From: Planctomycetota bacterium | GTDB lineage: Bacteria; Planctomycetota; B15-G4; SIAN01 | NCBI GenBank assembly: GCA_031409275.1 | Contig: JANNXA010000042.1 | Span: 1 to 58,864 of the forward strand | DNA length: 58,864 nucleotides | Direction of reading: 5' to 3' | Part shown: in pieces, positions 4,970 through 22,922 of the stretch | Layout of the letters: each line of letters begins with the position of its first letter | Position numbering within the stretch: the first letter of the stretch is position 1 | The notes under the pieces: generated by a model | What the model was told of the DNA's origin: nothing | What the model saw: only the letters and a program-made list of their open reading frames with translations | The model's database searches: none | Position numbers and translations under genes: made by a program

Positions 4970-7723
4970 TCAGCCAGCCAGCTCCTTCAGCTGAGCGGCG
5001 ACCTTCGACTGCTCGTCACGCAGCTGGCCCATGCGCTCGCGCTCGCGGGCGACGACGTCGGCGGGGGCGCGCGCCACGAAGCCCTCGTTGGCGAGCTTCG
5101 CCTCGATCTGCGCGACCTGCTTGGCGATCTCCTCGCATCGCTTGGCGAGTTCCTTCGAACGCGCCACCTTGTCGACGAGGCCGGCCAGCGGCAGGTAGAG
5201 CTCGGCGGCGCCAAACGGCTGCACGGGCACGACGGCAGCGTCGGAGTCGGCCGGACGGGCGAGGTCCGTCGCGAACGCGGCGAGGTTGCAGCGGGCGAGC
5301 CGCTCGAACCACGGCTGCGCTTCCTTCAGCACCGCGACGAGTCGCGCGTCGGGCAGCTTCACGTGCGCTGCCACCACGGCGTGCTCGGCGATCTTGTTCT
5401 CCGCGCGCAACTTGCGCAGCGCCGAGGTGATCTCCTGCAGGCCGGCCATCGCGGCAGCCGCCTCGTCATTGCGCGCCGTGCGCGGCGGCAGTGCCGACGC
5501 CTGCGGCCATGGCGCGACGATCAGGTCGGGGGCCGCGGTCGGCACGAAGCCGGCGCTCTTCAGGTGGCCCCACAGCGACTCGGTGACGAAGGGCGCCATC
5601 GGGTGGAGCAGGTGGAGCAGCGTCTCGATCACCTGGACCGCGATGGCGCTGGCCATCCGCCGCGACGCGGGATCGGCGGCGGCGTCGAGGCGCACCTTGG
5701 CGATCTCGACGTACCAATCGCAGAGGTCGTTCCAGGTGAAGCGGCGCAGCGCGTGGCTCGCCTCGTGGAAGCGGCAGGCGGGGATCGCGGCGGTCACCGT
5801 CTCCACCGTCTCGCGCAAGCGCGCCAGGATCCAGCGATCCTCGAGGCGCGTGGCCTGCGCGAGATCGACGCCGACGACGTCCTCCTTCGCGACCTTCTGC
5901 AGGACGAAGCGCGTCGCGTTCCAGAACTTGTTGACGAAGTTGCGCGCCTCCTCGACGCGCTGCTCGCTGAAGCGGATGTCCTGGCCCTCGACGGTCAGCA
6001 GCATCAGCGACACGCGCATCGCGTCGGCGCCGTACTTGTCGATCATGTCGATCGGGTCGATGCCGTTGCCGAGCGACTTGCTCATGCGCCGGCCCTGGCC
6101 GTCCAGCACGGTGGCGTTGATGTAGCAGACGTCGAACGGGCAGCGCTGGTCGAACGGCAGGTGGTCGGCGAAGGCGTAGCCCGCCATGACCATGCGCGCG
6201 ACCCACAGGTAGATGATCTCGCGCGCCGTCGACAGGAACTGCGTCGGGTAGTAGCGCGCAAGGTCGTCGGTCTTGCGGGGCCAGCCCAGCGTCGCGAGCG
6301 GCCACAGCCAGCTCGACGCCCAGGTGTCCAGCACGTCGGGGTCCTGACGGACGATGGGCTTGCCGCTCTTGGGATGGCGGTCGCCGATCGAAAGCTCGGT
6401 GCGCGACGCGACGGCGAGCCCGTCGGCGTCGTACCAGACCGGAATGCGGTGGCCCCACCACAGCTGGCGGCTGATGCACCAGTCGCGGACGTTCTCGAGC
6501 CAGTCGAGATAGACCTTGCTCCAGCGCTCCGGCACGAAGCGCAGCTTGCCGCTCTTCACTGCATCGATGGCGGGCTTGGCGAGCGGCTCCATCTGAACGA
6601 ACCACTGCTCGCTGATGCGCGGCTCGATGACCGAGCCGGAGCGGTCCGAGAGCGCGACCGACATCTCGTGGTCTTCGGTCTTCTCCAGGAGCCCCGCCGC
6701 GTCGAGGTCGGCGATCAGCCGCTTCCGCGCCTCTTCGCGCGAGAGCCCCTGGTAGCGGCCGCCATGCTCGTTGATGCGGCCCGCGTCGGTCAGCACCGAG
6801 ATCACCGGCAGCTTGAAGCGCTGGCCGCGCGCGTAGTCGTTGGGATCGTGGCCCGGCGTCACCTTCACCGCGCCCGTCCCGAAGCCGAGCTCGACGGTGT
6901 CGTCGGCCAGCACCGGGATCGACCGTTCCATCAGCGGCAGGATCACGCGCTTGCCGATCAGGTGCTTCCAGCGCGGCTCGTCGGGATGCACCACGACCGC
7001 CGTGTCGCCGAGCATCGTCTCGGGACGCGTGGTCGCCACGACGATGAACTCGCCGGGCGTCCCTTCCACCGGATAGCGCAGGTGCCAGAGCTTGCCCTTG
7101 CGCGTCTCGTGGTTGATCTCGTCGTCGCCGACCGCGGTCTGCAGCACGCAGTCCCAGTTCACCAGGCGTGGCCCGCGGTAGATCAGCCCCTGCTCGAAGA
7201 GGCGCACGAAGCTCTCGCGCACGGCGGCGGAGAGGTCTTCGTCCATCGTGAACTTCTGGCGCGTGTAGTCGGCCGAGCAGCCCATGCGGCGCAACTGCTC
7301 GACGATGCGGCTGCCGTACTGCTCTTTCCACTTCCAGACTTCTGCCAGGAACGCCTCGCGACCGAGCTGCTCGCGCGTCTGGTTCTTCTCCTTGAACAGC
7401 TTCTTCTCGACGACGGCCTGCGTGGCGATGCCGGCGTGGTCGGTGCCCGGCACCCACAGCGTCTCCTTGCCGCTCTTGCGGTGGAAACGGACCATCGCGT
7501 CCTGCACGCTGTTGTTGAGCGCGTGGCCCATGTGCAGCGAGCCGGTGACGTTGGGCGGCGGGATCATCACGACGAAGCGACCGCCGCGATCGGCGGCCGC
7601 CGCATCTCCGCGGCCGCCGGTGGCGTTTCGATCGGGCTGGAATGCGCCCGACTGCTCCCAACGGGCGAAGAGCGGCGACTCCGACTCTTCGGGGGAAAAG
7701 CGGTTCTGGATCTCGAAAGCCAT
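4970..7723 (-). CDS. valS: Valine--tRNA ligase
   Basis: PPPNVTGSLHMGH, PGTDHAGIATQ, ATTRPETMLGD, WCISRQLWWGH, RMSKS, C-terminal coiled coil (KLANEGFVARAP); ATG 7723. Confidence 0.97.
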   Translation of the reverse strand: MAFEIQNRFSPEESESPLFARWEQSGAFQPDRNATGGRGDAAAADRGGRFVVMIPPPNVTGSLHMGHALNNSVQDAMVRFHRKSGKETLWVPGTDHAGIATQAVVEKKLFKEKNQTREQLGREAFLAEVWKWKEQYGSRIVEQLRRMGCSADYTRQKFTMDEDLSAAVRESFVRLFEQGLIYRGPRLVNWDCVLQTAVGDDEINHETRKGKLWHLRYPVEGTPGEFIVVATTRPETMLGDTAVVVHPDEPRWKHLIGKRVILPLMERSIPVLADDTVELGFGTGAVKVTPGHDPNDYARGQRFKLPVISVLTDAGRINEHGGRYQGLSREEARKRLIADLDAAGLLEKTEDHEMSVALSDRSGSVIEPRISEQWFVQMEPLAKPAIDAVKSGKLRFVPERWSKVYLDWLENVRDWCISRQLWWGHRIPVWYDADGLAVASRTELSIGDRHPKSGKPIVRQDPDVLDTWASSWLWPLATLGWPRKTDDLARYYPTQFLSTAREIIYLWVARMVMAGYAFADHLPFDQRCPFDVCYINATVLDGQGRRMSKSLGNGIDPIDMIDKYGADAMRVSLMLLTVEGQDIRFSEQRVEEARNFVNKFWNATRFVLQKVAKEDVVGVDLAQATRLEDRWILARLRETVETVTAAIPACRFHEASHALRRFTWNDLCDWYVEIAKVRLDAAADPASRRMASAIAVQVIETLLHLLHPMAPFVTESLWGHLKSAGFVPTAAPDLIVAPWPQASALPPRTARNDEAAAAMAGLQEITSALRKLRAENKIAEHAVVAAHVKLPDARLVAVLKEAQPWFERLARCNLAAFATDLARPADSDAAVVPVQPFGAAELYLPLAGLVDKVARSKELAKRCEEIAKQVAQIEAKLANEGFVARAPADVVARERERMGQLRDEQSKVAAQLKELAG

Positions 7724-7776
7724 CGCCTCGATCTCGCTTGGAACTCCGGCAGCGCCGGAATGCAAAGCGCGACAGG

Positions 7777-7944
7777 CTAGCAGCCCATTCGAGAACTCTC
7801 CGAGTCGCCCGGCGGCGTCTTTCGAGCCGGTACTTCGTCGGACGTTCTCGACAACTCTCAGGGGAGTTGGCTTCGAACCTCCTCCTCGTCCCGACTCGAA
7901 ATCCACTCCCCGGACTCGCGGCGACTTCTCCAACGGGCTGCTAG
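7777..7944 (-). repeat. 168-bp inverted-repeat-bounded long-hairpin element (MITE-like or structured RNA), copy 1
   Basis: Ends CTAGCAGCCCATTCGAGAACTC / GACTTCTCCAACGGGCTGCTAG; its reverse complement aligns without gaps to 38870-39037. Confidence 0.85.
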
Positions 7945-7990
7945 CAGGCGCGCCGACCAAGTCGGGACGATGCCGCTCGCGGCGCGGCGT

Positions 7991-9205
7991 TCAGGCGCGC
8001 GCGCCGCGGCCGATCGGCTTGGCGAACCAGCCTTGCAGCGCTCCCGCACTCGCCAGCTGCAGGTCGGCCGCCAGCGCCGAGCTCTCGGTGAAGCGACGCT
8101 CGCGCACGCCAGCGAGACCGGCGCCGTAGAGCGCGAAGGGGACCGGACCGGCCGCGGTCGCCCGCGTCTCGACGGCCGTCGAGTGGTCGGAAGTGACCAG
8201 CAGCCGGCGTTCGAGCGGCGCCGCGTCGATCCACGCCAGCAGCGGCGCGACGATCTCGCGATCGACACGCTCGATCTGCGCCACCTTGCGGCGAGCATCG
8301 CCGCTGCGGGACGCCTCGTTCACCGCCGCGACGTGGACCACCGTCAGCGCGTGGCTGTCGACGAGCGCCAACGCCGCCTGCGCCTTCGCGGCGAGGTCGG
8401 AGCGCTCGTCAGCGGTGGTGCCGGCCACCCGCGGCGCACTGAAGCCGGCGCCGAGCGCGAGCCCTCGCACCAGCGGCGCCGCGGCGACGAACGCGACGCT
8501 CGCGCCGAACGGTCCCGCCGTGCGCGGCAGGCTGCACGCACTGCCTTCGCCCCACGGCCACACGGCGTCTGCCGGGTTCTCGCCGAGATCGACGCGAACG
8601 CGATTCACTTCGTGCGGCCGCAGCTTCGCCCACGCCGCCTCGATGAATCCCCGCAACGCCATCGAATCGCGGCCGTGCGGCAGGTGAGCCGCGAGCGGCT
8701 GGCCCAGCACGACATGCGGTGGAACCGTCTCGATGGCATGGAGCGCGCCGCCGGGAAGGAGCAGCAGATGGCGGTAGCCCGAGCCGGCGATCAACCGCCA
8801 GCCTGCCGGCAGCACGTCAGGCGCACGCAGCACTTCGAGCAGCAGATTCGCCTCATGATCGGTGACGTGGCCGGCACGCGTGTCGGCCAACGCCCCTTCG
8901 AACGTCGAGACGAAGTTCACGCGCAGCGCGAGGTCGTCCGGCGCCAGCTCGACGCCAAGTCCGAGCGCTTCGAGCGGGCCGCGTCGCAGATCGAGCGCCG
9001 CCGCGTCCCAGCCGAGCAATGCCGGCAGTCCCGTCACCGCGCTCGGCGACGCGCCTGGAACGGTCAGGTCGACGCTGCCCATCCGCCCGCGCGTCGCCAA
9101 CGCGTCGAGCGCGGGGTGGTCGGCCACCTCGAGCGGCGTCTTGCCCTCGAGCGCCTGCAACGGCCGCTCGGCGAGGCCCGGGATCACGATCATCAGCGCG
9201 CGCAT
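7991..9205 (-). CDS. ApgM-family (cofactor-independent phosphoglycerate mutase-like) protein with degenerate active site
   Basis: LEGKTPLEVA, RGPLEALGLG, LALRVNFVS, GSGYRHLL, HEVNRVR..G.NPADAVWPWGEG, TSDHST, PVPF. Confidence 0.8.
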   Translation of the reverse strand: MRALMIVIPGLAERPLQALEGKTPLEVADHPALDALATRGRMGSVDLTVPGASPSAVTGLPALLGWDAAALDLRRGPLEALGLGVELAPDDLALRVNFVSTFEGALADTRAGHVTDHEANLLLEVLRAPDVLPAGWRLIAGSGYRHLLLLPGGALHAIETVPPHVVLGQPLAAHLPHGRDSMALRGFIEAAWAKLRPHEVNRVRVDLGENPADAVWPWGEGSACSLPRTAGPFGASVAFVAAAPLVRGLALGAGFSAPRVAGTTADERSDLAAKAQAALALVDSHALTVVHVAAVNEASRSGDARRKVAQIERVDREIVAPLLAWIDAAPLERRLLVTSDHSTAVETRATAAGPVPFALYGAGLAGVRERRFTESSALAADLQLASAGALQGWFAKPIGRGARA

Positions 9206-9343
9206 GGCGGCCCCCCCTCCGCGTGAACGATGCGCCGCGACGTTACGGCCCGCCAGGCGGCGCGTCCACGCGAGAGGAGAGCCGAGGAACGCGACGGCGC
9301 CGGGCCGCGTGTGCGACCCGGCGCCGTTTCATCGATCGTTCGG

Positions 9344-12229
9344 TCACTCGCCTTCGATGCTCTCGAGCGGGCCATTCTCCGGCATCACCTGAAGCGTCTT
9401 CAGGAAGTCGATGACGCAGGCGGCGTTCGCCTCCGAGAGCGCCGCGTACGCATCGCGCGCGGCCTGCGCCTCGCCACCGTGCATGAGGATGGCGTCGGCG
9501 ATGGTCAGCGCCCGGCCGTGGTGCATGAAGGGCGGCTCGCTGGCGAAGCCCCAGAGCTTCTTGGTGAGGAACTGCGAGGTCGGCACGCCGCCCTGGACGA
9601 GCGTCTCGTTGTTGAGCTCGGCGCCCATGTCGTGGCGCTTCAGGTCGGTGTAGGCCGGGACGCGCACGCTGCCATCGGTCTCCGGCGCGAGGTGCGGACC
9701 GGGGCCGTGAGCGGTCAGGTCGACCTCGAAGGGCGCCGCCACATCCGCCACCGCTAGGTTGCCCGACGGGTTGAAGGGGTTGGGCTCGCTGAAGAGCGGG
9801 CTGTCGAGTGCGAGCTCGGGCACGTGACAGGTCGCGCAACCGAGCGACGCGAAGAGCTTCTCACCGCGCTCCACGGCCTTCTGTCGCTTGCCCTGCGCCG
9901 GCAGGACGCGGCCCGGCACCGGCAGGAGCGCCTGGTAGAGCGTCGTCGCCGTGACGTCGCCGCGCGAGAGCTCGTCGAGCACGCCATCGCTGTCGGCATC
10001 GACGCCGTCGCCGAACCGCTCGGACGGCTGCATGCCGTGGTGGTGGTTCATCGCGTTGTTGGTGAACTCGCGCAGCGAAACCACGACGCCCTTCTGGTGG
10101 AACGGGCGCACGATCAGGTCCGCGTTGACGCCCTGGACTCCGCTCGTGTCGACCGAGCCGTTGGCGTGCGCGGTCAGGGTGCCGAAGGAGACGCCCTTGG
10201 TCACGAGATCGACCGTCACGTCCGCGTTGTCGTTCGCCGCCTGCGCGATCGCGGCGACGCGCTGTGCGATCAGCTCCGTCGACATCTCGCGCGAGAGCAG
10301 CTCGATGAAGCCGGCGCCCCACATGCCGAGCGTGTTGCGCTCGTTGGCGGCCTGTTCGAGCGTCGGCGTCAAGCTCAAGTCATCGAGCCCGCCGTTGAAG
10401 CGCAGGAACGGGAAGCGCTGTCCGAGCACGAAGACGTTGGCGACGTTGTCGCCGCCGCCGCCCGAACGCGGCAGGTTGTGGCAGCCGCCGCAGCTGTTGG
10501 CGTCGGGGGCCGAGATGCGGTTGAAGTTCTCGGGCACCGCGTGAGCCGTGCGCGCCGAACCGGTGCCAGTGGTGGTCGGACGCCCCTGGCCGTCGAGCGT
10601 GTTGAAGAAGGCATTGAAGCCGACCTTGCCGATCGCGAAGAGCGCCTCCGGCGTGTAGACGCCCGCGTCGATGTCATCCTGATCGATGTGGCCACCGGCA
10701 AGCGCCGGCTCGTCGCCGATCGTTCCCGAGGGCGCGCCGATCACGACGCTCGACGTCGCGTCTTCCGGCAGCACCTGCAAGGTCTTCAGGAACTCGACGA
10801 TCTTCTTCTGGTCGTTGGCGGACAGCGCTTCGTACGCGAGCCGCGCGGCATCCCCTTCGCCGCCATGCATGCGGATCGCCTCGTCGATCGTCGTGGCGCG
10901 GCCATGGTGCATGAACGGTGGCTCGTTGCTCATTCCCCACAGCTTCTTGGTGAGGAAGAGGTTCCCCGCGACGCCCGCCTGCACCAGCGGCTCGGCGAGG
11001 CCGGAGCCCATGTCGTGGCGCTTCAAGTCGGTGTAGGCGCGCACCTTCACGCTGCCATCGGACTCGCGCGGCAGATGCGGCGCGGGGCCTTCCGTGGTGA
11101 GGTCGACGGTCACCGGATCGATGACGTCGACGAGGCGCAGGTTGCCGGCCGGGTTGAACGGGTTGGGCTCGCTGAAGAGCGGACTGTCGAGCGTGAGCTC
11201 GGGGACGTGGCACACGGCGCAGCCGGCCGTCGCGAAGAGCTGTTCACCGGCGATCACGGCATCGAGCTCGACGCCAGCCGGACCGGGCAGGAGCTGGCCC
11301 GGCGCGGGCAGCGTCGCTTGCCACAACGTCGCCGCGGTGATGTCGCCGGGCGTCAGCTCGTCGGCCATGCCGTCGGCATCGGCGTCGACGCCAGCGCCGA
11401 AGCGCTCCGACGACTGCATGCCGTGGTGGTGGTTCATGGCGTTGTTGGTGAACTCGCGCAGCGACGTGACCACGCCCTTCTGGTGGAACGGCTTGATCAC
11501 CAGCGTGGTGTCGACCCCCGCGACGGCGCTCGTGTCGAGCGAGCCGTTGGCGTGCGCCGTGATCGAACCGAAACCGACTCCCTTGGCGACGAGCGGCAAC
11601 GTGACATCGCTGCCCGCCGTCGCCGCCTGATCGATCGCATCGTCTCGGATCGCCTGCAGCTCGGTCGTCATCTCGCGGGCGAGCAGCTCGATGAAGCCGG
11701 CACCGAACATCCCGAGCGTGTTGCGCTCGTTGGCGACATCCTGAAGCGTGTGGGTCTGATTGCCGTCGCCGATGCCGCCGTCGAAGTTGACGAACTCGAA
11801 GCGCTGCCCGAGCACGAAGACGTTGGCGACGTTGTCACCGCCGCCGCCGACGCGAGGGATGCTGTGGCAACCGGCGCAGGAGTTGGCGTCCGGGCCCGAG
11901 ATGCGGTTCATCTTCTGCGTGCCTTCGCGGCGGTTGCGCGCGACACCAGTACCCGTCGTCTCGGGTCGCATCGCGCCGTCGAGTTCGTTGAAGCTGCCCG
12001 CGAAGAGGAGCGCGCCGGCATCGAGCACCTGCTCGAGCGGCACGCGGCCAAGCTCGAGCGCGCGCTGGTCGAGGTGACTCCCGAGCACGCCGCTGTCGCC
12101 TTGCGCGGTGAAAGGCGTCTCCTCGTGACTGCTCTTGCGCCAGCAACCCGCGGCGAGTGCCGCAGTGGAAAGGAGCAGGAGTCGAGAATTCCCGCGTCGA
12201 ACGCTGCGGACCGCACGAACATGAACCAT
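9344..12229 (-). CDS. Lipoprotein with two tandem di-haem oxidoreductase (DHOR-like) modules, 4 CxxCH
   Basis: LAAGC lipobox; CAGCH, CAVCH, CGGCH, CATCH; duplicated RNTLGM.GAGFIE, YTDLKRHDMG, LWG, PPFMHHGRA. Confidence 0.85.
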   Translation of the reverse strand: MVHVRAVRSVRRGNSRLLLLSTAALAAGCWRKSSHEETPFTAQGDSGVLGSHLDQRALELGRVPLEQVLDAGALLFAGSFNELDGAMRPETTGTGVARNRREGTQKMNRISGPDANSCAGCHSIPRVGGGGDNVANVFVLGQRFEFVNFDGGIGDGNQTHTLQDVANERNTLGMFGAGFIELLAREMTTELQAIRDDAIDQAATAGSDVTLPLVAKGVGFGSITAHANGSLDTSAVAGVDTTLVIKPFHQKGVVTSLREFTNNAMNHHHGMQSSERFGAGVDADADGMADELTPGDITAATLWQATLPAPGQLLPGPAGVELDAVIAGEQLFATAGCAVCHVPELTLDSPLFSEPNPFNPAGNLRLVDVIDPVTVDLTTEGPAPHLPRESDGSVKVRAYTDLKRHDMGSGLAEPLVQAGVAGNLFLTKKLWGMSNEPPFMHHGRATTIDEAIRMHGGEGDAARLAYEALSANDQKKIVEFLKTLQVLPEDATSSVVIGAPSGTIGDEPALAGGHIDQDDIDAGVYTPEALFAIGKVGFNAFFNTLDGQGRPTTTGTGSARTAHAVPENFNRISAPDANSCGGCHNLPRSGGGGDNVANVFVLGQRFPFLRFNGGLDDLSLTPTLEQAANERNTLGMWGAGFIELLSREMSTELIAQRVAAIAQAANDNADVTVDLVTKGVSFGTLTAHANGSVDTSGVQGVNADLIVRPFHQKGVVVSLREFTNNAMNHHHGMQPSERFGDGVDADSDGVLDELSRGDVTATTLYQALLPVPGRVLPAQGKRQKAVERGEKLFASLGCATCHVPELALDSPLFSEPNPFNPSGNLAVADVAAPFEVDLTAHGPGPHLAPETDGSVRVPAYTDLKRHDMGAELNNETLVQGGVPTSQFLTKKLWGFASEPPFMHHGRALTIADAILMHGGEAQAARDAYAALSEANAACVIDFLKTLQVMPENGPLESIEGE

Positions 12230-12293
12230 CGCTGGATCCCCTGATGAAGCCGGCGTGCCCGAAAGGAGCTGGGCGGCCGGGCCTCTGGACATA

Positions 12294-12308
12294 GCACGTT
12301 CGGCACCA
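12294..12308 (-). promoter_or_regulatory. Possible sigma-54 promoter of the DHOR gene
   Basis: TGGTGCCGAACGTGC: GG-N10-GC spacing, about 65 bp upstream of ATG 12229. Confidence 0.3.
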
Positions 12309-12398
12309 AATGGCCGCCAACTGGAATGAACGGCCGATCGGGAACGGTGACTCAGTCGCGTGGGGACAGGAAGTCCCTCAGTGCCCCGATCCGACGGG

Positions 12399-13343
12399 TC
12401 ATCCAGCCCGATCGGCAGCGACGACAACCTTGGCTAGCTCGGCCAACGCCGCGGGCAAAGGCTGCGGCTCCGGCAACCCCTCCGACGCGATTCGATCGCT
12501 CGCCAACGAGACGTCGCGCGGCCGGCCGCCGCCGAGCTCGGACTGCGCGGCGGGGACAAGGCGGCGCAACGGCGCGCCGGCGGCCACCGGAAACGCCGCA
12601 TCGATCGCCTGGCCGAGCGCGAAGCGGTCGATCCGCGTCGGCCCCGCCACATGCAACGTGCCCGTCAACCGCTTCGCCAGCGCCGCATCGACCACGCGCG
12701 CGAGGTCGAGCACCGAGACCGGCGTGCGCCACTCGTCGGTGAAGAGTCGCACCTCGCGCTCCGCCGGTGCGTGACGCACGAAGTCGAGCGCACCGCTCGC
12801 TCCGTCAGCCGACGGCGCCAGCACCAACGCGGTCCGCAGCACCAACGCGTCCGCGCCGCTCGCCACGAGCGCCTGCTCCGCGGCGACCTTGCTGGCGCCA
12901 TACGCGTGCAGCGGCGCCGGTGCGTCCGCTTCGCGATAGCCCGGAGCGCGGCCCTCCTGCCACGTGCGATCGCCAGCGAAGACCTGGTCGGTCGAGAAGA
13001 GGATGAAGTGCGCGCCGTCGCGCGCCGCACCACGCGCCAGTCGAGTCGTCGTGGCGACGTTCATCCGCTGTGCGAGTGGAGGATCGCGCGCGCAATCGGG
13101 CAGCGAGGCGAGCGCGGCGAGGTGGACGATCGCCTGCGGCTCGACCTGCTCGAGCAGCGACTCGATCGCGCCCGGAGCGAGCAGATCGCACGCCAGCGCC
13201 TGGTCCCCGCGACGCAGCGGCGCCGGCGCGCGTCGACGATGGGTGACGACGACGACTCGCCAGCGCGCGAACGCATGCCGGTAGAGCGGCGCACCGACCA
13301 ATCCGGTGGCGCCAGTGAGCAGCAGCGTCGGTTGCGTCCCCAT
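12399..13343 (-). CDS. Extended SDR, dTDP-4-dehydrorhamnose reductase (RmlD)-like
   Basis: LLTGATGLVG, IVHLAA, FSTDQVF, YGASK (YxxxK), LFTDEWRTP, RPRDVSL. Confidence 0.85.
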   Translation of the reverse strand: MGTQPTLLLTGATGLVGAPLYRHAFARWRVVVVTHRRRAPAPLRRGDQALACDLLAPGAIESLLEQVEPQAIVHLAALASLPDCARDPPLAQRMNVATTTRLARGAARDGAHFILFSTDQVFAGDRTWQEGRAPGYREADAPAPLHAYGASKVAAEQALVASGADALVLRTALVLAPSADGASGALDFVRHAPAEREVRLFTDEWRTPVSVLDLARVVDAALAKRLTGTLHVAGPTRIDRFALGQAIDAAFPVAAGAPLRRLVPAAQSELGGGRPRDVSLASDRIASEGLPEPQPLPAALAELAKVVVAADRAG

Positions 13344-13386
13344 CAGCTCCAGCCACGAGAGCGGGCGACGATACAATCCCGCCCCC

Positions 13387-14265
13387 ATGACTCCTGCCGC
13401 CGCCGCCCGTACTGCCAGGATCCGCGACCTCGTCGTCGGAGCCAATCGACCGCTCGCGCTGCTGGCCGGCCCCTGCGTCGTCGAAGGCGAAGCGATCACG
13501 CTGCGCATCGCCGAGCGCGTGATCGCGCAGGCCCGCGCCGCCGGACTGCCGATCGTCTTCAAGGCCTCCTTCGACAAGGCCAATCGCACTTCGGGCAAGT
13601 CGTTCCGCGGCCTCGGCGCCGACGCGGCGCTCGCGGTCCTCGCGAAGGTGAAGCGCACCTTCGACGTGCCGTTGGTCACCGACATCCACTTGCCCGAGCA
13701 CGCCGCGCTGGCGGCCCAGGTGGTCGACCTGCTGCAGATCCCGGCCTTCCTGTGCCGGCAGACCGACCTGTTGCTGGCCGCCGCCGCCGCTTCCGTCGCG
13801 ACCGGTTGCGCCATCAACGTCAAGAAGGGGCAGTGGCTCTCGCCCGAGGAGATGGAGCACGTCGTGCGCAAGCTGCGCGACGCGGGTGCCAAGGAGGTGA
13901 TCGTCACCGACCGCGGCACCTTCTTCGGCTACCACCGCCTCGTGAACGACTTCGCCTCGATCCCGATCATGCAGCGCCACGGAGTGCCGGTCTGCTTCGA
14001 CGCGACCCACTCGGTGCAGCAGCCCGGCGGCGCCGGCGACAAGAGCGGCGGCAATCGCCGCATGGCGCCGACGCTCGCGCGCGCCGCCGTCGCCGTGGGC
14101 GCCGACCTCGTCTTCATGGAAGTGCACGAGAATCCGGACGCCGCGCTTTCGGACGGCCCGAACTCGCTTCCGCTCGAAGTGCTGCCGCGCGTCTTCGCCG
14201 CCCTGCGTCGACTGCGCGAGCAGGCCCTGGCCGATCCGCCCGGCAGCGAGTTCGACGGTGAATGA
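13387..14265 (+). CDS. kdsA: KDO8P synthase
   Basis: AGPCVVE, FKASFDKANRTS, LQIPAFLCRQTDL, NVKKGQW, FDATHSVQQPGG, MEVHENPD, SDGPN. Confidence 0.96.
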   Translation: MTPAAAARTARIRDLVVGANRPLALLAGPCVVEGEAITLRIAERVIAQARAAGLPIVFKASFDKANRTSGKSFRGLGADAALAVLAKVKRTFDVPLVTDIHLPEHAALAAQVVDLLQIPAFLCRQTDLLLAAAAASVATGCAINVKKGQWLSPEEMEHVVRKLRDAGAKEVIVTDRGTFFGYHRLVNDFASIPIMQRHGVPVCFDATHSVQQPGGAGDKSGGNRRMAPTLARAAVAVGADLVFMEVHENPDAALSDGPNSLPLEVLPRVFAALRRLREQALADPPGSEFDGE

Positions 14266-16711
14266 CGGCCCCGATGCATCCGCCGAGCGGCTCCCGCTGC
14301 AGGAGCTGGTCGGCACCGTGCTCGGCGAGTACACGATCCGCCGCATCCTCGGATTCGGATCGATGGGCGTCGTCTTCGAGGCGCACCACACCAAGCTCGA
14401 TCGCCGCGTCGCGCTGAAGGCGCTGCCGCCGGGGCTCGGCGCCACGGAGAAGGCGATCCAGCGCTTCCTGCGCGAGGCGCAGGCGGTGGCGCAGCTCACG
14501 CACGAGCACATCGTCCCGATCTACGAGATCAGCCAGACCGGCGCGATCCACTGGTACGCGATGCGCTTCCTCGACGGCGAGCCGCTCGACCGCACGCTGA
14601 AGCGCGGACGCCTCGACCCAAACGAGGCGGCGCGCCTCCTGCAGACGGCCGCGCGCGCGATCCACTTCGCCCACCAGCACGGGATCATCCACCGCGACAT
14701 CAAGCCGGCGAACATGATCGTCGAGCACGACGGCAAGCTCGTCATCACCGACTTCGGCCTCGCGCGCCCCGAGCAAGGCGGCGGCATCACCGATTCGGGC
14801 GCGATGGTCGGCACGCCGCGCTACATGAGCCCGGAACAGATCCGCGCGCGCAAGGGCGAGGTCGACCGGCGCACCGACATCTGGTCGCTAGGCGCCACGC
14901 TCTACGAGGCGGTTGCGGGCGAGCCGCCCTTCCCCGGCGAGTCGACACAGGAGATCCTGCAGCAGATCCTCGACGTCGATCCGCGCTCGCCGCGCAGCCT
15001 GCGCCCCGACCTGCCGTTCGACCTCGAGGTCATCATCCTCAAGGCGATGGAGAAGGAACCCAAGCGCCGCTACGCCTCCGCACTCGCTTTCGCGCAGGAC
15101 CTCGAGCGCTTCCTCGAGGGCGAGCCGATCGTGGCGCGGCGCACCTCCATCGTGAAGCGCTCGCTGCGCCGCCTCTCCAAGCACAAGGCGATCGTCGGCC
15201 TCACCGCGGCGATCGTCCTCATCGTGCTGACGTTCGGTTGGATCACCAAGCGGTCGCGCGATCAGCAGAATGACCGCATGTTCCGCGACAAGCTCGAGCA
15301 GGCGCGCGGAAGCTTCGCGGACGAGAACTTCGCGGACGCCGACCAGAACTACGACGACGCGCTGCGCCTGCGCGCGAACGATGTCGAGGCACTGCTCGGC
15401 CGCGCGCGCGCCCGCTGCTTCCTCTCCCAGGAATGGGAACGCGAGCTCGCCGCCGATCCGAACGCGCTCCCGACGCTGAAGCAGGCGTGGGGATCGCCCG
15501 ACAAGCTCTACGCCGCGGCGTTTCGCGATCTCGAAGCCGTCGAGAGGGACCTGCCCGACCAGCCGCTCGCCTGCTTCTATCGCGGGTTCCTGCGCTGGCG
15601 CTCGCGCGTGGCGCTGGAGCGTGACCGCGGCTTCGAGGACCTCTTCCGCGCCGAGACGCTGGGCGCGGGAGATTGGGAGACGCAGCTCGAGTTCGCCCGT
15701 TTCCGCTTCGGGCTCGCGCGCGATGAACGGCGCGACGAGAGCCAGCGCGGCGAGTTGTTGCAGCATGCGCTCACCAACGCGACGCGCGCCGTGCAGATGC
15801 TGGAGGACGCCTCGACGCACCACCCGACCGCCTTGCTCGACCGCTGGCGGTTCCGCGCGCACAAGCTGCGCGCCGACGTCTACCAGCGCCTCTACGAGTC
15901 GGGCGGCAACCTGAAGACCTACCTCGAGCTGGCGCTGAGCGACCTCGTCGCCGCGTTGGCGATCGACCGCGAGCGAGACGTGCTGACGCGGCAACAGCGC
16001 GACTTCGTGAAGGGGCTGCTCGACGAAGCGGCCCGCCCCGCCCCGACGAGCAGCGGCGTAGCCCAGATGCGTCCCGACGCGCGGCCGCTGCCAGGCATCG
16101 CGCGCGATCTGCTCAAGCTGTTCGACTCGGCGCCGATGAGCGAGAAGAGCGAGACGATCGCCAAGCTGCTGAAGAGCGGTGGCGCGGCGCTCTCGCCCCT
16201 CGTCGATCCGCTGCTCGAAAACGTCGGCACCTTGCGGGAAGGGTTGATGGACCGCTTCATCAACCCGTTCCTCCCCGCCGGCGCGACGGTCAGCGATGCG
16301 GCCCGCACGACCGCCGAGACCAGCGCCCAGAAGGCGCGCCACCTGTTGCAGGAAGCGCTGAAGAGCGGGACGGTGACGCGCGCCGTGCGCGAGCAGGCGC
16401 GCGATCATCTGCGCGCTGCCGCCGCCGCCAACCCGCGCAACGCGCAGTACCACTTCGAGCTCGCCGTCGTCGAGCAGGACCTCGGCGAGCTGGTCGACGC
16501 GCGCAGCCATCTCGAGCGCGCCACCGCCATCGCGCCGAGCAACCCGCTCTTCTTCAGCCAACTGGCGCTGGTCTGCGAAGGGCTCGATGACTTCGCCAAG
16601 GCCATCGAGCACGCCCACCAGGCGGCGCTGCTCGCGCCTGGGATCGCGGAGTTCCAGGCGCTCGAAACGCGGCTGCGCGACGATGCCGCGACGCAGCAGC
16701 AGGACGGCTGA
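14258..16711 (+). CDS. Membrane-anchored Hanks-type Ser/Thr protein kinase with TPR-like C-terminal region
   Basis: GFGSMG, VALK, HRDIKPAN, DFGLA, GTPRYMSPEQ, TDIWSLG; TM helix; helical TPR-like repeats; overlaps kdsA stop. Confidence 0.92.
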   Translation: MNDGPDASAERLPLQELVGTVLGEYTIRRILGFGSMGVVFEAHHTKLDRRVALKALPPGLGATEKAIQRFLREAQAVAQLTHEHIVPIYEISQTGAIHWYAMRFLDGEPLDRTLKRGRLDPNEAARLLQTAARAIHFAHQHGIIHRDIKPANMIVEHDGKLVITDFGLARPEQGGGITDSGAMVGTPRYMSPEQIRARKGEVDRRTDIWSLGATLYEAVAGEPPFPGESTQEILQQILDVDPRSPRSLRPDLPFDLEVIILKAMEKEPKRRYASALAFAQDLERFLEGEPIVARRTSIVKRSLRRLSKHKAIVGLTAAIVLIVLTFGWITKRSRDQQNDRMFRDKLEQARGSFADENFADADQNYDDALRLRANDVEALLGRARARCFLSQEWERELAADPNALPTLKQAWGSPDKLYAAAFRDLEAVERDLPDQPLACFYRGFLRWRSRVALERDRGFEDLFRAETLGAGDWETQLEFARFRFGLARDERRDESQRGELLQHALTNATRAVQMLEDASTHHPTALLDRWRFRAHKLRADVYQRLYESGGNLKTYLELALSDLVAALAIDRERDVLTRQQRDFVKGLLDEAARPAPTSSGVAQMRPDARPLPGIARDLLKLFDSAPMSEKSETIAKLLKSGGAALSPLVDPLLENVGTLREGLMDRFINPFLPAGATVSDAARTTAETSAQKARHLLQEALKSGTVTRAVREQARDHLRAAAAANPRNAQYHFELAVVEQDLGELVDARSHLERATAIAPSNPLFFSQLALVCEGLDDFAKAIEHAHQAALLAPGIAEFQALETRLRDDAATQQQDG

Positions 16712-17963: not shown

Positions 17964-19313
17964 ATGCGCATCGGTTTCTCGTCCACCTTGATCGCCGTCG
18001 CCCTGTGCTGCAGCACCGGGTGCCAGCGCGTCAGCCACGACCGCGCCCCGACCTCGGAGGCGACGGCGCAGTTCGACGCCAGCGTCGCCACGCGCTGGAT
18101 GCAGACGCTCTACGACGTGGTGAAGACCAACGCCGGCCTTTCTCCGCCGGTCGCGTCGCGCGCCTACGGCTACGCGGGCGTGACGCTCTGGGAGTGCGTG
18201 GTGCCAGGCATGCCGGGCCATCAGTCGCTCGCCGGTCAGCTGAACGAGTTCACCGGCGTGCCGCAGCCTTCCGGAATCGTCGACTACCGCGCGGTCGCCA
18301 ACACCGCGCTCGCCGCGGTGATCCAGGGCGGGATCATCCCGGCCATCAACGGCACGAACGTCACGCGCGTCACGGACCTCGAAGCGGACATCAACGGCGA
18401 GCTCGCGCTCGAAGTCGATCCCAGCGTCCTCCAGCGCTCGAACGACCTCGGTGCCGACATCGCGGCCGCGATCCTGACCTGGGTCGCGGGCGATGGCTTC
18501 ACGATCTTCAACAACTGCACCTACACGCCGCCGGTCGGCCCCGGTCTTTGGGTGGCGCTCAGCGGACAGACGGCGCTGCAGCCGTGCTGGGACCTGATTC
18601 GCCCCTTCGTGCTGCTGCCGGCCAGCGAGTGCGCTCCGATCGCCCATCCGACCTTCAGCGAGACGCTCGGTTCCGCGTTTCGCAACGAGGCGCAGGAAGT
18701 CGTCGACACGTGCGGTGACGCCGGCGCGGGCCTGACGGTCGATCAAGACGCAATCGCCCGCTTCTGGGCCGACGGCCCCGGAGCCACCGGCACGCCGCCG
18801 GGCCACTGGATCTCGATCACCGCGCAGATCTGCGACGACGATGGCGAGACGCTCGCGGTGGCCGCCGAGGCCTACGCGAAGCTCGGCATCGCGGTCGCCG
18901 ACGCGTTCATCTCCTGCTGGCAGACCAAGTACCAGTACAACCTCGAGCGGCCGATCACCTACATCCAGCGCGTCATCGACGCGAACTGGGATCCGCTGCT
19001 GGCGACGCCGGGCTTCCCCGAATACACGTCGGGCCACTCGGTGCAGTCCGGCGCGGCTGCAACGGTGCTGACCAACGTGCTCGGCGCGCGTGCCTTCACC
19101 GACAACACCCACACGATCCACAATGACTTGGTCGGCGCCGGCAACACGGTCCCGCCCGCGCGCAACTTCACCGACTTCGACACCGCCGCGCAGGAAGCTG
19201 CCGATTCGCGCCTGTTCGGCGGCATCCACTTCCGTGCCGCCATCGACAACGGCGTCGCGCAAGGCGTCTGCGTCGGGACCGAAGTGCTCGACAACCTGCA
19301 ATTCCTGAAGTGA
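17964..19313 (+). CDS. Vanadium-dependent haloperoxidase-like (PAP2 superfamily) lipoprotein
   Basis: SPPVASRAY, TPPGHW, WQTKYQYNLERP, TPGFPEYTSGHS, SRLFGGIHF; Cys-containing signal peptide. Confidence 0.88.
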   Translation: MRIGFSSTLIAVALCCSTGCQRVSHDRAPTSEATAQFDASVATRWMQTLYDVVKTNAGLSPPVASRAYGYAGVTLWECVVPGMPGHQSLAGQLNEFTGVPQPSGIVDYRAVANTALAAVIQGGIIPAINGTNVTRVTDLEADINGELALEVDPSVLQRSNDLGADIAAAILTWVAGDGFTIFNNCTYTPPVGPGLWVALSGQTALQPCWDLIRPFVLLPASECAPIAHPTFSETLGSAFRNEAQEVVDTCGDAGAGLTVDQDAIARFWADGPGATGTPPGHWISITAQICDDDGETLAVAAEAYAKLGIAVADAFISCWQTKYQYNLERPITYIQRVIDANWDPLLATPGFPEYTSGHSVQSGAAATVLTNVLGARAFTDNTHTIHNDLVGAGNTVPPARNFTDFDTAAQEAADSRLFGGIHFRAAIDNGVAQGVCVGTEVLDNLQFLK

Positions 19314-19481: not shown

Positions 19482-20984
19482 CTACTTGCCCGCGTAGCCC
19501 AGGGCGTGCAGCGCCTCGCTGTCGAGCGCTTCGAGCTCGCGCGCGTTGCTGCCCACCGGCGGCGGTAGCTCGCGCATCTGGCGCAAGGCCTCGTCGCGCA
19601 GCGTCGCGGCGCGCTCCGGTTGCGCCGCAGCGAGGTCGCGCTTCTCGCCTGGATCGAGTTCGAGGTCGTAGAGCTCGACCTTGACGGGCTCGTTGGCCCG
19701 ATCGAGCGTCACGATCACCTTGAAGCGCTCGCTGCGCAGCCCGATCAGCGAGTTCGGTACCACGTTGATCTGCCGCTCGCGCAGCGCTTCGAGCAGGATC
19801 TCGCCCGGCGCTTCCGCCGCCGCGCGACGCGCCGGATCGGCGTCCGTGAAGGACAGCAACGAGCGCCCCTGCATCGCGGGCTCCGGCGGGAGTCGCAACC
19901 ACTCGAGCACCGTCGGCGCGACATCGAGCGTCCGGACCAGCGGCGCCACCCGCTCGCCGCGCGCGCTGGCGTCGGGACGCCGCACGATCAGCGGCACGCG
20001 CATCACTTCGTCGTAGATCTCGCTGTTGTGCTCGAAGATCTGCTTGTGCTCGCCGAGCGCCTCGCCGTGATCCGCCACCACCACGATCAGCGTCTCGTCG
20101 AAACGCCCCACCTTGCGCAGCCCGTCGAGCAGCCGGCCGAGCTGTTCGTCCTGCCACGCAAGTTCACCGTCGTAGAGCGCCGACATGTGCTCGCGATCGC
20201 CGGCGCCGAGCTGCCCGCGCTTGTAGAGCTGCCAGAACTTGCGCTGGTCGCCATCCATCGGGCCGCGGTAGTCGGGATCGAAGGCGCGATCCCACGGCGG
20301 CGGCGGCTGATAGGGCTGGTGGGCGTCGAAGTAGTGCACCCACAGGAAGAAGGGCTGCTGGCCGAGGCCGGAGAGCCAGTCGAGCGCCGCGTTGGTCGTC
20401 GAGTCGCCGCTCCGTTGATAGGCGGTGGCGATCGTCGCTTCCCACTTCTTGCGATCCTCGGCAAGGTCCTTCGGCAGCTTGCTCACGTCGAACTTCATCA
20501 GCGGCGTGTCGACGTGGTCGTCGTACGCGGCGAAGCCCTGGTCGAGGCCGAACTGGGAGTCGAGCACGAACGCGGAGACGAAGGCGCCGGTCGCGTAGCC
20601 ACGCGCCTGCAGCAGTTCGGCGAGCGTCGTCTGCTCGGCGCCGAGGAAATAGACCGCGTTGTCGTGGACGCCGTGGCTCTGCGGATAGCGGCCGGTGAAG
20701 AGCGAGGAATGGCTCGGGAACGTGGACGGAATCGGCGTGAACGCGCGCTCGAAGGTCGTCCCCTCCGCCGCGAGCGCATCGAGGCGCGGCGTCTTCGCCG
20801 CCTTGAAGCCGTAGGGGCCGAGCCGGTCGGCTCGCGTCGTGTCGAGCGAGACGACGAGCACATTGACGGGCTGCCCCACCGGCTGTGTGGGCAGACGCGA
20901 CGGCGGCTCGTCACCGCAACTCGCGAGGAGCGCTGGCAGCAGCGGGAGGAGTGACGCCGTTATCGTGCCGCGGTGGCCATTCAT
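19482..20984 (-). CDS. Sulfatase-fold (alkaline phosphatase superfamily) lipoprotein with Thr at the nucleophile position
   Basis: LLASC lipobox, VSLDTTRAD, STFPSHSSLFTG, WVHYFDAHQPY, ADHGEALGEH, ELYDL..DPGE, LHALGY. Confidence 0.88.
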   Translation of the reverse strand: MNGHRGTITASLLPLLPALLASCGDEPPSRLPTQPVGQPVNVLVVSLDTTRADRLGPYGFKAAKTPRLDALAAEGTTFERAFTPIPSTFPSHSSLFTGRYPQSHGVHDNAVYFLGAEQTTLAELLQARGYATGAFVSAFVLDSQFGLDQGFAAYDDHVDTPLMKFDVSKLPKDLAEDRKKWEATIATAYQRSGDSTTNAALDWLSGLGQQPFFLWVHYFDAHQPYQPPPPWDRAFDPDYRGPMDGDQRKFWQLYKRGQLGAGDREHMSALYDGELAWQDEQLGRLLDGLRKVGRFDETLIVVVADHGEALGEHKQIFEHNSEIYDEVMRVPLIVRRPDASARGERVAPLVRTLDVAPTVLEWLRLPPEPAMQGRSLLSFTDADPARRAAAEAPGEILLEALRERQINVVPNSLIGLRSERFKVIVTLDRANEPVKVELYDLELDPGEKRDLAAAQPERAATLRDEALRQMRELPPPVGSNARELEALDSEALHALGYAGK

Positions 20985-22922
20985 CGCGCGGAGCATATCG
21001 ACGGCGCGACAGCGCGACCCGCAACGGGCCGACGCTGGCGCGCGTGGATTGGCGGGCTGCTGCTGGTCGCGGCGCTCGTCGGCTCGGCGCAGGTCCGTCT
21101 TCGCGTCGCCCGCGCCGATCCCGGCTTCGACGCGAGCGATCCGCGCCGCGTGCTGTGGAGCGACCCGGCGCTCCTCTACTACTTCACCGAGCGCATCGTG
21201 GAGAACGGCGGCAGCGCCCCCGCCGACCTGCGCGCCGACCCGAGCTTCCAATGGCCCGACCGCGTCGACGCGATCGCGTTCGAGACCGTGGGTCAGGAGT
21301 ACGTCGCGGCGGCCTGGCACCGCTGGTTCGGGGCGGGGCAGTCGCTGCACGTGAGCTGTCTCGAATCGATGAGCTGGTCGGCGAGCGCGGTCGCGATCGG
21401 CATCTTCCTGCTGGCCGCAGAGGTGACCAGGAGCGCGCTGCTGGGCGGCTTCGCGGCGCTGCTCTACGCGCTGCTTCCCACCAGCTACCGCACGCTCGGG
21501 ATCATGCTGCTGCGCGAGGATTTCGCGCTGCCGTGGTTCGCCCTCCACCTGGGCCTGCTCGCCATCGCCGCGCGCCGCCGCACCGCGAGCTGGTTCGTGG
21601 CGAGCGGACTGGCGCTGCTGCTGGCGCTGGCGACCTGGCACGCGATGGGCTTCGTCGTCGCGATGGAGGCGGCCGTCGTCCTCGCGTGGTACCTGCGCAG
21701 CGGCGACAACCCGTTCACGGTCCCGCGCGCGTGGCTGCTTCCAGCCGTCGTCGCGGCCGGCTCGTTCGTGGTGCCGGTGCTGCGCGCGAAACTCGCCGTC
21801 TTGTCGCTGCCGATGCAGGCCGTCGCCGGCCTGCTCGCGGCGCACGTCGTGATGCGGCGCGCCGGCGCGAAGCCGTGGCACGGCCGCGCGGCAGCGCTGG
21901 CAGGCACCGCGGCGGCGGCGTTGACGGCGATGGCGTTGTCGAGCGCGCTCGGCGGCGGTCTTGGCGACTACTCGCACGTGGTGCGGCTGCTGCTGGCGAA
22001 AGCGCGCTTCCTCGGCCAGTTGCCCGCCGATCCGCGCGCGCTCGATTTCGAGGCGCGCCTCCTGTGGCAAGGTCCGTTCGAAACCAGCAGTGTCGCCGCG
22101 CTGGTCAGCGGCATGGGCATCACGCTGATCGCCGTGGCGTTGCTGCTGCTTCGCCGGATCCCCGATTGGGTTCGCGGTCGCGGCGAGCGACGCGAAGCGC
22201 TGTTGGCGGCGTTCTCGGCCGTGACGCTGGTCGCCGCATGGTTGGTGGCGCGCACGGAAGTGGTCGCCGGGATGGCGGCGCCGGTGGCGGCAGCCGTCGT
22301 GGTCGGCTGGCTGCGACCGCGCCTGGCGCAAGCGCTGGTCGCCGCGCTCGCACTGGCCATCGCCGGTTTCCAGCTCGAGCCCTTCCTGACCCACCACCGC
22401 ATCGACTGGTACTCGGTCCCGCGTCGCTCCGCCGACGGCAGCGTCTCCCTCGTCGCCCATCCCCGCCAGAATCACCTGCCGCGGCTGCTCACGTTCATCG
22501 ACGCCAACGTGCCGAAGGGCGCCGCCGTCGCCGCGGACATGGTCACCTCGACGGCGATCCTCGCCCACACGCGCCACCCGATCCTGCTGCAGCCGAAGTA
22601 CGAGTCGCGCGAGAGCCGCCGCCGCATCGAGGAGTTCCTCGACACCTTCTTCCGCGGCACGCCCGCCGACCTCGCCGCCTGGCTGCGCCGCTACGACTGC
22701 CGCTGGTTCGCGTGCGACGTGAAGACGCTGGGCCTCGGGTCGCCCTACCTCGCCGGGTTCAAGGACGACGGCAGCGAGCCGCCCGCGCCCGGCACCGCCG
22801 CCGCCGCCTTCCTCGCGCCCGAGCCACCGGCAGAGATTTCCGGGCTCACACTGCGCTGGCGCTCCTCCGTCGACCCGCGCGCTGAGCTCTATCGCGTCTA
22901 CGAGCTGACCAGCGATTCGTGA
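20973..22922 (+). CDS. GT-C membrane glycosyltransferase, DPY19-like (STT3-related)
   Basis: About 12-13 TM segments plus soluble C-terminal domain; WSDPALLYYF, LLREDFALPW, DYSHVVRLLLAK..DFEARL, AVAADMVTSTAILAHTRHPILLQPKYESRESRRR; start approximate. Confidence 0.75.
   Translation: MAIHRAEHIDGATARPATGRRWRAWIGGLLLVAALVGSAQVRLRVARADPGFDASDPRRVLWSDPALLYYFTERIVENGGSAPADLRADPSFQWPDRVDAIAFETVGQEYVAAAWHRWFGAGQSLHVSCLESMSWSASAVAIGIFLLAAEVTRSALLGGFAALLYALLPTSYRTLGIMLLREDFALPWFALHLGLLAIAARRRTASWFVASGLALLLALATWHAMGFVVAMEAAVVLAWYLRSGDNPFTVPRAWLLPAVVAAGSFVVPVLRAKLAVLSLPMQAVAGLLAAHVVMRRAGAKPWHGRAAALAGTAAAALTAMALSSALGGGLGDYSHVVRLLLAKARFLGQLPADPRALDFEARLLWQGPFETSSVAALVSGMGITLIAVALLLLRRIPDWVRGRGERREALLAAFSAVTLVAAWLVARTEVVAGMAAPVAAAVVVGWLRPRLAQALVAALALAIAGFQLEPFLTHHRIDWYSVPRRSADGSVSLVAHPRQNHLPRLLTFIDANVPKGAAVAADMVTSTAILAHTRHPILLQPKYESRESRRRIEEFLDTFFRGTPADLAAWLRRYDCRWFACDVKTLGLGSPYLAGFKDDGSEPPAPGTAAAAFLAPEPPAEISGLTLRWRSSVDPRAELYRVYELTSDS

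Follow-up and report, generated by a model that had tools for sequence, protein, structure and literature searches.

Two sulfatase-like proteins of the alkaline phosphatase (AP) superfamily, Agl30 (VNG1056C; Q9HQQ3) and Agl31 (VNG1057C; Q9HQQ2), are encoded in glycosylation clusters of Halobacterium; their deletion cuts glycan sulfation 50-300-fold, and the glycan of Haloferax gains sulfate when they are expressed there (PMC11980604). Agl7 (HVO_2046) is likewise described, in the accessible portion of its report, as required for sulfation of the dolichol phosphate (DolP)-linked hexose (PMC3892788). For the tryptophan C-mannosyltransferase DPY19, the available text assigns R211 and R471 as the donor-phosphate arginines and places P576 and Y578 in the Trp(0) groove (PMC10154233), and C-mannosylation is listed in the available portion of a 2026 review for mammals, insects, mussels, apicomplexans and a virus, bacteria not being among them (PMC12990085). 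Here we analyzed a stretch of 58,864 nucleotides from a Planctomycetota bacterium (assembly GCA_031409275.1, contig JANNXA010000042.1; hereafter the window), in which two sulfatase-fold proteins with a Thr at the nucleophile position, S1 and S2, lie next to two GT-C glycosyltransferase genes, the DPY19-like GT1 and the TMTC-like GT2. We favor, with moderate confidence, the explanation that S1 and S2 belong to a large Thr-nucleophile branch of the sulfatase fold, which is predicted to transfer sulfate onto envelope glycans by a ping-pong reaction via the Thr, to be fed by a relay from 3'-phosphoadenosine 5'-phosphosulfate (PAPS) and to use a docking tail.

The features of the window to which the text refers are as follows.

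19482-20984 or 20996 (depending on the start chosen), minus strand: S1, an exported lipoprotein with the scaffold of S1-class sulfatases (a class name independent of our protein label) and a Thr nucleophile (PF00884, lipobox)
20709-20723, minus strand: T-F-P-S-H of S1 at the place of C/S-x-P-x-R, with the Thr codon at 20723
19494-19511, minus strand: C-terminal L-x-x-L-G-Y tail of S1 (LHALGY), from the translation and the tail survey
20973-22922, plus strand: GT1, a bacterial DPY19-like GT-C glycosyltransferase (PF10034 Dpy19, E 6e-15)
52436 or 52457 to 54154, plus strand: GT2, a TMTC-like GT-C protein with a TPR-like C-terminus, named from the families of its homologues
54182-54760, minus strand: a small lipoprotein with an LAGC lipobox, convergent with GT2 and likely translationally coupled to S2
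54757-56433, minus strand: S2, a membrane-anchored sulfatase-fold protein with TLPSH (PF00884, E 3e-35), with the Thr codon at 56226

Results

A Thr motif is the genome default, and formylglycine machinery was not found

The motifs TFPSH in S1 and TLPSH in S2 were present as a preliminary description of the window had stated. In the whole genome (5.59 Mb, 92.9% complete; 4,092 genes called with our own codon model), 56 matches to PF00884 were found. Two matches shorter than 250 amino acids, one of which is a cytoplasmic Thr enzyme (C4:13441), were excluded, leaving 54 long domains. The nucleophile is Thr in 52 of these (hereafter, the Thr enzymes), Gly in one and Ser in one, and a His lies four residues past it in 33 of the 54. 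Neither C/SxPxR nor the Lys and His of GKWH was observed in any of the 54 domains, the latter columns holding A/G and V/T/S. The late sulfate-binding Lys of the S1-class sulfatases is not kept, and a His comes after DHGE in the Thr enzymes; the HxPY His is found in 54/54 domains and D-H in 53/54.

Among the 4,092 called genes, no gene with C/SxP[SA]R was found. A pattern search of the same genes revealed no catalytic motif of the formylglycine-generating enzyme (FGE), and the genome search gave no TIGR03942 match for an anaerobic maturase, both within the 92.9% of the genome that is covered. Because 52 of the 54 domains have Thr, C/SxPxR and the GKWH Lys/His are absent and no maturase was found, S1, S2 and their kin, as judged by their motifs, cannot be formylglycine sulfatases. 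Since the Thr motif is the default of this genome, two Thr enzymes in one window are unremarkable, and any pairing with other genes must therefore be weighed against their high abundance.

Radical SAM maturation of the Thr was considered and rejected: a radical SAM gene does lie next to one Thr enzyme, but its score of 34 bits is below the cut-off of 349, and no such maturase turned up in the genome search. The window itself encodes a PF03781 FGE-sulfatase-domain protein (2572-4548, plus strand), which has no match to the catalytic FGE pattern and is likely non-catalytic. In a rough pattern test, a lipobox or a strongly hydrophobic segment precedes the domain in 37 of the 52 Thr enzymes, and some paralogues carry 3-5 helices. 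The 80 neighbors of Thr enzymes that were scanned include GT4 and GT2-family glycosyltransferases, MurJ, an epimerase, SGNH proteins and many unrelated genes.

The fold of S1 is closest to S1-class sulfatases

S1 matches PF00884 with E 3e-46, and its translation contains the lipobox LLASC. Its structural model (predicted local distance difference test, pLDDT, 92.7) matches the sulfatase fold in Foldseek with E 3e-29, and the best structural matches are S1-class sulfatases (Z 43, root-mean-square deviation 2.5, 358 aligned), compared with Z values of 32 for LtaP, 28 for EptA and 27 for NPP. As read from sequence, D16, T56, H190, D273, H274 and H287 are nearly invariant in 69 sequences, a set that appears compatible with phospho and sulfo transfer alike. 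The end of the S1 tail is modeled with low confidence (pLDDT 49-56 over the last two blocks) and is likely mobile.

The NCBIfam models for EptA and LtaS match weakly (E 5e-5 to 1e-9; 18-37 bits versus cut-offs of 400-1250). The multi-helix N-terminal membrane domain for a lipid donor is found neither in S1, a lipoprotein, nor in S2, which has a single N-terminal anchor helix, no lipobox and a likely start at 56433. S1 and S2 thus share the Thr/metal-type site with the EptA/LtaS families, and they lack the other two of the three defining features, the membrane domain and a score above the model cut-offs.

Haloarchaeal glycan-synthesis clusters and the Thr enzymes share a C-terminal tail

Close homologues came from Planctomycetota genomes, and the 13 top-ranked plasmid matches of S1 are all haloarchaeal. 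From 558 records, eight regions were picked by hand, comprising six of glycosylation type, one catabolic and one from Paenibacillus; the neighbors in the last (L271) include a sugar ABC transporter and Gfo/Idh oxidoreductases. In the six glycan-synthesis regions, which encode 16 proteins, the 12 readable motifs have Thr in 11 cases and Ser in one, whereas in the catabolic haloarchaeal cluster all 11 proteins have C/SxPxR, most with GKxH. The strict LxxLGY tail was seen in 12 of the 16 glycan-cluster proteins and in none of the 11 Cys-type catabolic ones. In a tree of 39 rows, the 12 Cys-type rows fall on one side of a 100/100 branch (the bootstrap not being fully settled), and the planctomycete and haloarchaeal Thr enzymes interleave on the opposite side, where S2 groups with haloarchaeal WTLPSH-type proteins at 93/88.

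The tail is present in 38 of the 52 Thr enzymes, compared with 19 of 1,368 similar-sized genes, and in 120/120 haloarchaeal homologues, 118 of which are TxPxH. S2 has the variant LRRSGY, followed by ~100 further residues. When the search was confined to the last 45 residues, 43 genes were obtained, namely 32 Thr enzymes, 2 other AP-fold proteins, 3 proteins of a sulfate-activation (sat-cysC) operon and 6 others; 37 of the 43 therefore belong to the first three classes, versus ~5 expected by chance. The cloning primers of Agl30 and Agl31 also encode LxxLGY ends (PMC11980604). In the adenosine 5'-phosphosulfate (APS) kinase copies of the tail, the Tyr position is often Phe, and for this reason we prefer a docking tag over a sulfate-carrying Tyr as the function of the tail. 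No description of the Thr-enzyme family was found in the literature, in a search whose coverage largely leaves out subscription journals.

The tail connects the Thr enzymes with a sulfate-activation operon

The operon is located outside the window:

C49:44674-56192 (L302): sat-cysC operon with three Ser-type PF01663 proteins carrying S-P-V-A-W, small tail-bearing proteins and a membrane protein

Its tail-bearing products are two small proteins (81 and 66 aa) and a lipoprotein, and the membrane protein has 281 aa. Genes for AP-fold proteins of the operon are located at C49:50732, 52921 and 44674. One of the PF01663 proteins contains a signal peptide, a helix and a basic stretch, so that its catalytic domain is predicted to be cytoplasmic, and the other two look exported. 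Homologues of the cytoplasm-facing protein were observed at 20 of 31 cysC loci. In addition, 11 of 12 family-f4 genomes have the gene for a short cytoplasmic Thr enzyme (WTAPSH/WTGPSH) located between sat and cysC; in the twelfth, a contig end interrupts the region. The enzyme is encoded at L277:7915-8871 and, displaced from the operon, at C4:13441-14388 in this genome. The gene for PAPS reductase (cysH) was detected in 2 of 31 genomes, this one not being among them, and PAPS is therefore likely spent on sulfation. The sat-cysC operon is a candidate for a trans-envelope sulfuryl relay. Aryl-sulfate sulfotransferase (ASST) was rejected as the partner, as only one sub-threshold PF14269 match was obtained.

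GT-C genes lie near Thr enzymes more often than expected, within a loose association

GT-C genes were collected with Pfam seeds and with iterative profiles, irrespective of their location, which gave 34 genes and one fusion; one PF13231 match (C12) remained uncalled, and one false GT-C (MraY-like, C36) had been removed beforehand. Within two genes of a Thr enzyme were 8 of the 34 GT-C genes, compared with 163 of 4,006 other genes (4% background; p 6e-5) and with 5 of 164 other membrane proteins (p 2e-4). Direct adjacency was seen for 4/34 versus 84/4,006 (p 0.006), and after removal of the window's own two GT-C genes, 6/32 were still within two genes (p 0.002). The adjacency thus exceeds the expectation from family abundance, against which the preliminary description had set it, by ~5-fold, and it is modest and loose.

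One protein of 1,236 aa is a fusion of an AftB-like GT-C domain and a Thr enzyme (C55:445381-449091; L248:9382-13092). Its gene belongs to a run that also includes a PF01663 protein, a separate GT-C and two additional Thr enzymes. At C51:279000-303000 (L246, L247) there is a glycan island in which four Thr enzymes accompany a GT4, an epimerase and an SGNH protein, along with two of the counted GT-C genes and two others that are likely GT-C genes too.

The distribution of DPY19-like genes across genomes is patchy, with presence in 5 of 41 relatives and 8 of 301 phylum genomes, and relatives of S2 were present in all 13 genomes searched. For the 57 of 78 DPY19-like genome loci that had 1.5 kb on both sides, a sulfatase-fold gene was adjacent at 10 and anywhere in the fetched flank at 19. 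The binomial p for 10/57 is 3e-7 at a base rate of 2.1% and 5e-4 at 5%, values that are overstated, as kin are not independent. The density of sulfatase-fold genes was 15-21 per 100 kb within 500 nt of a DPY19-like gene versus 0.6-2.5 at 5-9 kb. On a FastTree tree of 141 DPY19-like proteins (17 adjacent, 72 not, 52 unscored owing to short flanks), adjacency changes state 9 times, and a quick tree places the adjacent enzymes in at least five lineages. Some loci are ordered enzyme, DPY19-like, enzyme, GT-C, GT-C (L043, L048, L140 type).

For the S1/GT1 pair, the head-to-head arrangement given in the preliminary description was confirmed, the start codons overlapping by 12-24 nt; in the orthologous loci L014, L015, L093 and L094, both frames begin M-H at nearly the same place. 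No adjacent partner was observed for the GT1 orthologue of G006 or for the second DPY19-like gene of this genome. The latter (C16:167150-169027) is 45% identical to GT1, and its nearest Thr enzymes are ~11 kb away on each side. Apparent fusions among the DPY19-like long matches (P0030, P0047, P0050) were set aside as apparent read-through extensions, and no sulfatase domain was found in 131 new proteins from a representative search.

For the GT2/S2 pair, which is convergent, the layout of GT2 facing a lipoprotein-S2 operon was retained, the S2 stop overlapping the likely lipoprotein start (ATGA at 54757-54760); S2 was corrected to a protein with an N-terminal anchor and a revised start. The pair is kept in four family-f1 genomes (G002, G004, G005, G006). 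A lipoprotein homologue was detected by blastp between GT2 and S2 in L229, L230 and L232, and after GT2 in L219. Outside family f1, adjacency was observed at 0 of 20 GT2 loci; at 12 of the 20, a sulfatase-fold gene lies 3.9-7 kb off, behind other genes. GT2/S2 is the weaker pair and is confined to one family. The wider claim of a recurring GT-C/sulfatase-fold pairing survives in the ~5-fold enrichment, the 10/57 DPY19-like loci and the single fusion, and not as a tight association; conservation in relatives extends to DPY19-like genes with enzymes of several lineages and, for GT2/S2, to family f1 only.

GT1 is likely a DPY19-type glycosyltransferase

The model of GT1 (pLDDT 94.3) has CeDPY19 as its best Foldseek match (TMq 0.75, E 2e-15), with STT3 a close second, whereas the profile comparison leaves a wide gap between 7ZLG (E 2e-16) and STT3B (0.013). 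In the profile alignment, the equivalents of R211, R471, P576 and Y578 are R173, R427, P541 and Y543, and F369 was paired by eye with F401 across a one-residue gap; these five are kept in 111-117 of 117 GT1 homologues. The position of DPY19 Y395 is L364 or W365 in GT1, and that of K473, in the Trp(+3) pocket, is variable and not kept in the homologues. D64, present in 114/117 homologues, was matched to E71 by position only, the N-terminus being unaligned to 7ZLG, and it is likely the catalytic acid. These comparisons of profile and model suggest that GT1 is likely a DPY19-type protein glycosyltransferase, whose acceptor is possibly Trp. The count of WxxW, 569 versus 405 expected, is not diagnostic, since other spacings gave 429-519. 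A further prokaryotic-looking subfamily consists of more distant DPY19-like proteins (P0477-P0491; 780-940 aa), whose C-termini appear to carry TPR repeats.

No match to GT2 was found in the Pfam search. GT2 has a match in 41/41 genomes searched; its homologues are TPR proteins, several of them with PF08409 TMTC_DUF1736, and a GT2 paralogue also has DUF1736 and TPR; for this reason the earlier designation TMTC-like was kept. The term mannosyltransferase for these GT-C genes is a family label.

Other genes of the window

The gene of a lipoprotein with a weak PAP2 match (17964-19313, plus strand) is convergent with S1, an arrangement with conserved synteny in close relatives; we take the protein to resemble the vanadium haloperoxidases. 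Several long genes (917, 404 and 914 aa in our own gene calls) occupy 4970-16711, upstream of a Ser/Thr kinase-TPR gene.

Discussion

In the mechanism that we favor, the metal-activated Thr would take the sulfuryl group from a donor to form Thr-O-sulfate, which would then be passed to a sugar hydroxyl, and no maturation to formylglycine would be needed. PAPS produced by the sat-cysC operon would be relayed outward through a membrane-anchored AP-fold protein with a predicted cytoplasm-facing domain, the small membrane protein and one or two exported paralogues, with the LxxLGY helix serving as docking tag. The ~50 paralogues would differ from one another in the sugar or position that they serve, and such specialization would fit the frequent but non-obligate GT-C neighborhood. 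The target sugars would include those likely installed by GT-C enzymes such as the neighbors, and S1 may act on the product of GT1. We regard as doubtful the full combination, i.e., a formylglycine-free trans-envelope sulfation in which a PAPS relay feeds dozens of tagged exported Thr enzymes acting on GT-C glycans, with a bacterial DPY19 that C-glycosylates Trp among the GT-C enzymes.

Several observations weigh against sulfate transfer. The D/T/H/D/H/H site reads like that of EptA/LtaS, and the biochemically characterized Thr members of the superfamily move phospho groups. Five PF13469 PAPS-dependent sulfotransferases in the genome could alone explain the PAPS operon, no exported-type Thr enzyme was found within 9 kb of cysC in this genome, and the relay of PAPS sulfate to the periplasm is a step that we purely infer. 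The haloarchaeal contrast comes from the eight hand-picked regions with their single catabolic cluster. No match to Agl30 or Agl31 occurs among the 120 haloarchaeal hits, and kinship with them is suggested by the tail, the BLAST/InterPro description in the paper and the cluster context. In the available part of that paper, sulfation is placed on the dolichol-linked glycan and Agl31 is called soluble (PMC11980604); S1 is exported, and PAPS is cytoplasmic. On the Paenibacillus plasmid (L271:7980-14754), cysC lies between two Thr enzymes that lack the tail, and the surrounding cluster is one for sugar uptake. As for GT-C glycans as the targets, only 10 of the 52 Thr enzymes have a GT-C gene within two genes and 42 do not, and 47 of the 57 DPY19-like loci are without an adjacent enzyme.

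The alternative that survives best is a phospho-form transferase or phosphodiesterase activity (EptA/LtaS/GacH-like) of the Thr enzymes, by which GT-C-made glycans would receive phosphoethanolamine, phosphoglycerol or related groups. The preliminary description had proposed this chemistry, and we now consider it a second choice, possible but rather unlikely. It would account for the Thr nucleophile with its conserved D, H(xPY), DHGE and downstream His, for the EptA and LtaS model matches, far below cut-off as they are, and for an export of most of the enzymes to where phospholipid donors are available, and the GT-C linkage fits it equally. However, the fold is nearer to the S1-class sulfatases than to LtaS/EptA, S1 is without the multi-helix lipid-binding domain, and the tail is common to the sulfate-activation proteins and Agl30/31, with a Thr enzyme inside the sat-cysC operon. 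We therefore favor sulfuryl over phospho transfer because of the scaffold, the haloarchaeal relatives, the shared tail and the operon link.

It is improbable that the pairing is incidental, the family having some envelope role and the window pairs reflecting two abundant families in envelope islands without hand-over of substrate. In favor of this view, the genome encodes as many as 52 Thr enzymes and 35 GT-C genes; GT2/S2 is convergent and adjacent in family f1 only, the second DPY19-like gene and that of G006 are unpartnered, and the scarcity of DPY19-like genes in the phylum (8/301) next to the ubiquity of S2 relatives (13/13) fits the same view. On the other side, the enrichment holds also over other membrane proteins, one fusion exists, different enzyme lineages were recruited repeatedly, and the density falls off with distance from the DPY19-like gene. 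The envelope system of GT-C and Thr enzymes that had first been suggested is supported in part by the export signals, the GT-C link, the fusion and the glycan-cluster relatives, and weakened by how loose the pairing is.

Hydrolysis, with the Thr enzymes acting as phosphoesterases or as sulfatases that need no formylglycine and trimming or scavenging the substituents of the cell's own or foreign glycans, is very doubtful: the S1-class scaffold, BNR-repeat proteins among the neighbors and the Paenibacillus pair would suit it, but GKWH and the sulfate-binding Lys set are lost, C/SxPxR marks the haloarchaeal catabolic cluster whereas Thr marks the biosynthetic ones, and sulfation falls upon deletion of Agl30/31.

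With their annotation as sulfatases, genes of this kind might enter tallies of the capacity to break down sulfated polysaccharides; for 52 of the 54 here, a formylglycine sulfatase is excluded. Should they be sulfotransferases, the annotated direction of the reaction is wrong, and bacteria would be able to make sulfated surface glycans without the PAPS-binding sulfotransferase fold; for the archaeal Agl30/Agl31, a testable mechanism, with a Thr-sulfate intermediate and a donor, would follow. A bacterial DPY19 with a conserved tryptophan groove would make prokaryotic C-glycosylation directly testable. The value of the finding lies in the likely reversal of an annotated reaction and in the bacterial DPY19, the link between the two being looser than the word pairing implies.

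Among known systems, GT1 resembles the DPY19 tryptophan C-mannosyltransferase (CeDPY19, 7ZLG) in its best fold and profile matches, in a GT-C fold with a luminal dome and in most Trp-pocket residues, and differs in its ~15% identity, the loss of K473 and the Leu or Trp at Y395. The GT2 homologues carry DUF1736 and TPR repeats as do the protein O-mannosyltransferases TMTC1-4, whereas GT2 itself scores in no Pfam family.

The Thr enzymes share with the S1-class formylglycine sulfatases and phosphonate monoester hydrolases (6HR5, 4UPL, 6PT4, 4UPH) the whole fold (Z up to 43), the N-terminal metal Asp and DHG. Unlike the formylglycine sulfatases, they have Thr for Cys/Ser, His or another residue for Arg, no GKWH, His for the late Lys and an extra LxxLGY tail, and no maturase was found in their genome. 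With EptA/MCR-1, LtaS/LtaP, NPP and BcsG they have in common an unmodified hydroxyl nucleophile, a similar His/Asp set by sequence and an extracytoplasmic location, whereas Z is only 23-32, S1 is without the membrane donor-binding domain and the scores are far below the NCBIfam cut-offs.

Compared with Agl30, Agl31 and Agl7, the last of which we take to be annotated as a sulfatase, the enzymes described here are bacterial, exported as lipoproteins or anchored, expanded to ~50 paralogues, and linked to GT-C rather than to cytoplasmic GT2/GT4 genes. As putative members of that group, the Thr enzymes would work most like Agl30 and Agl31, with which they share a sulfatase-like core and the LxxLGY end (LHALGY in S1 and a variant in S2), and other haloarchaeal cluster proteins interleave with them.

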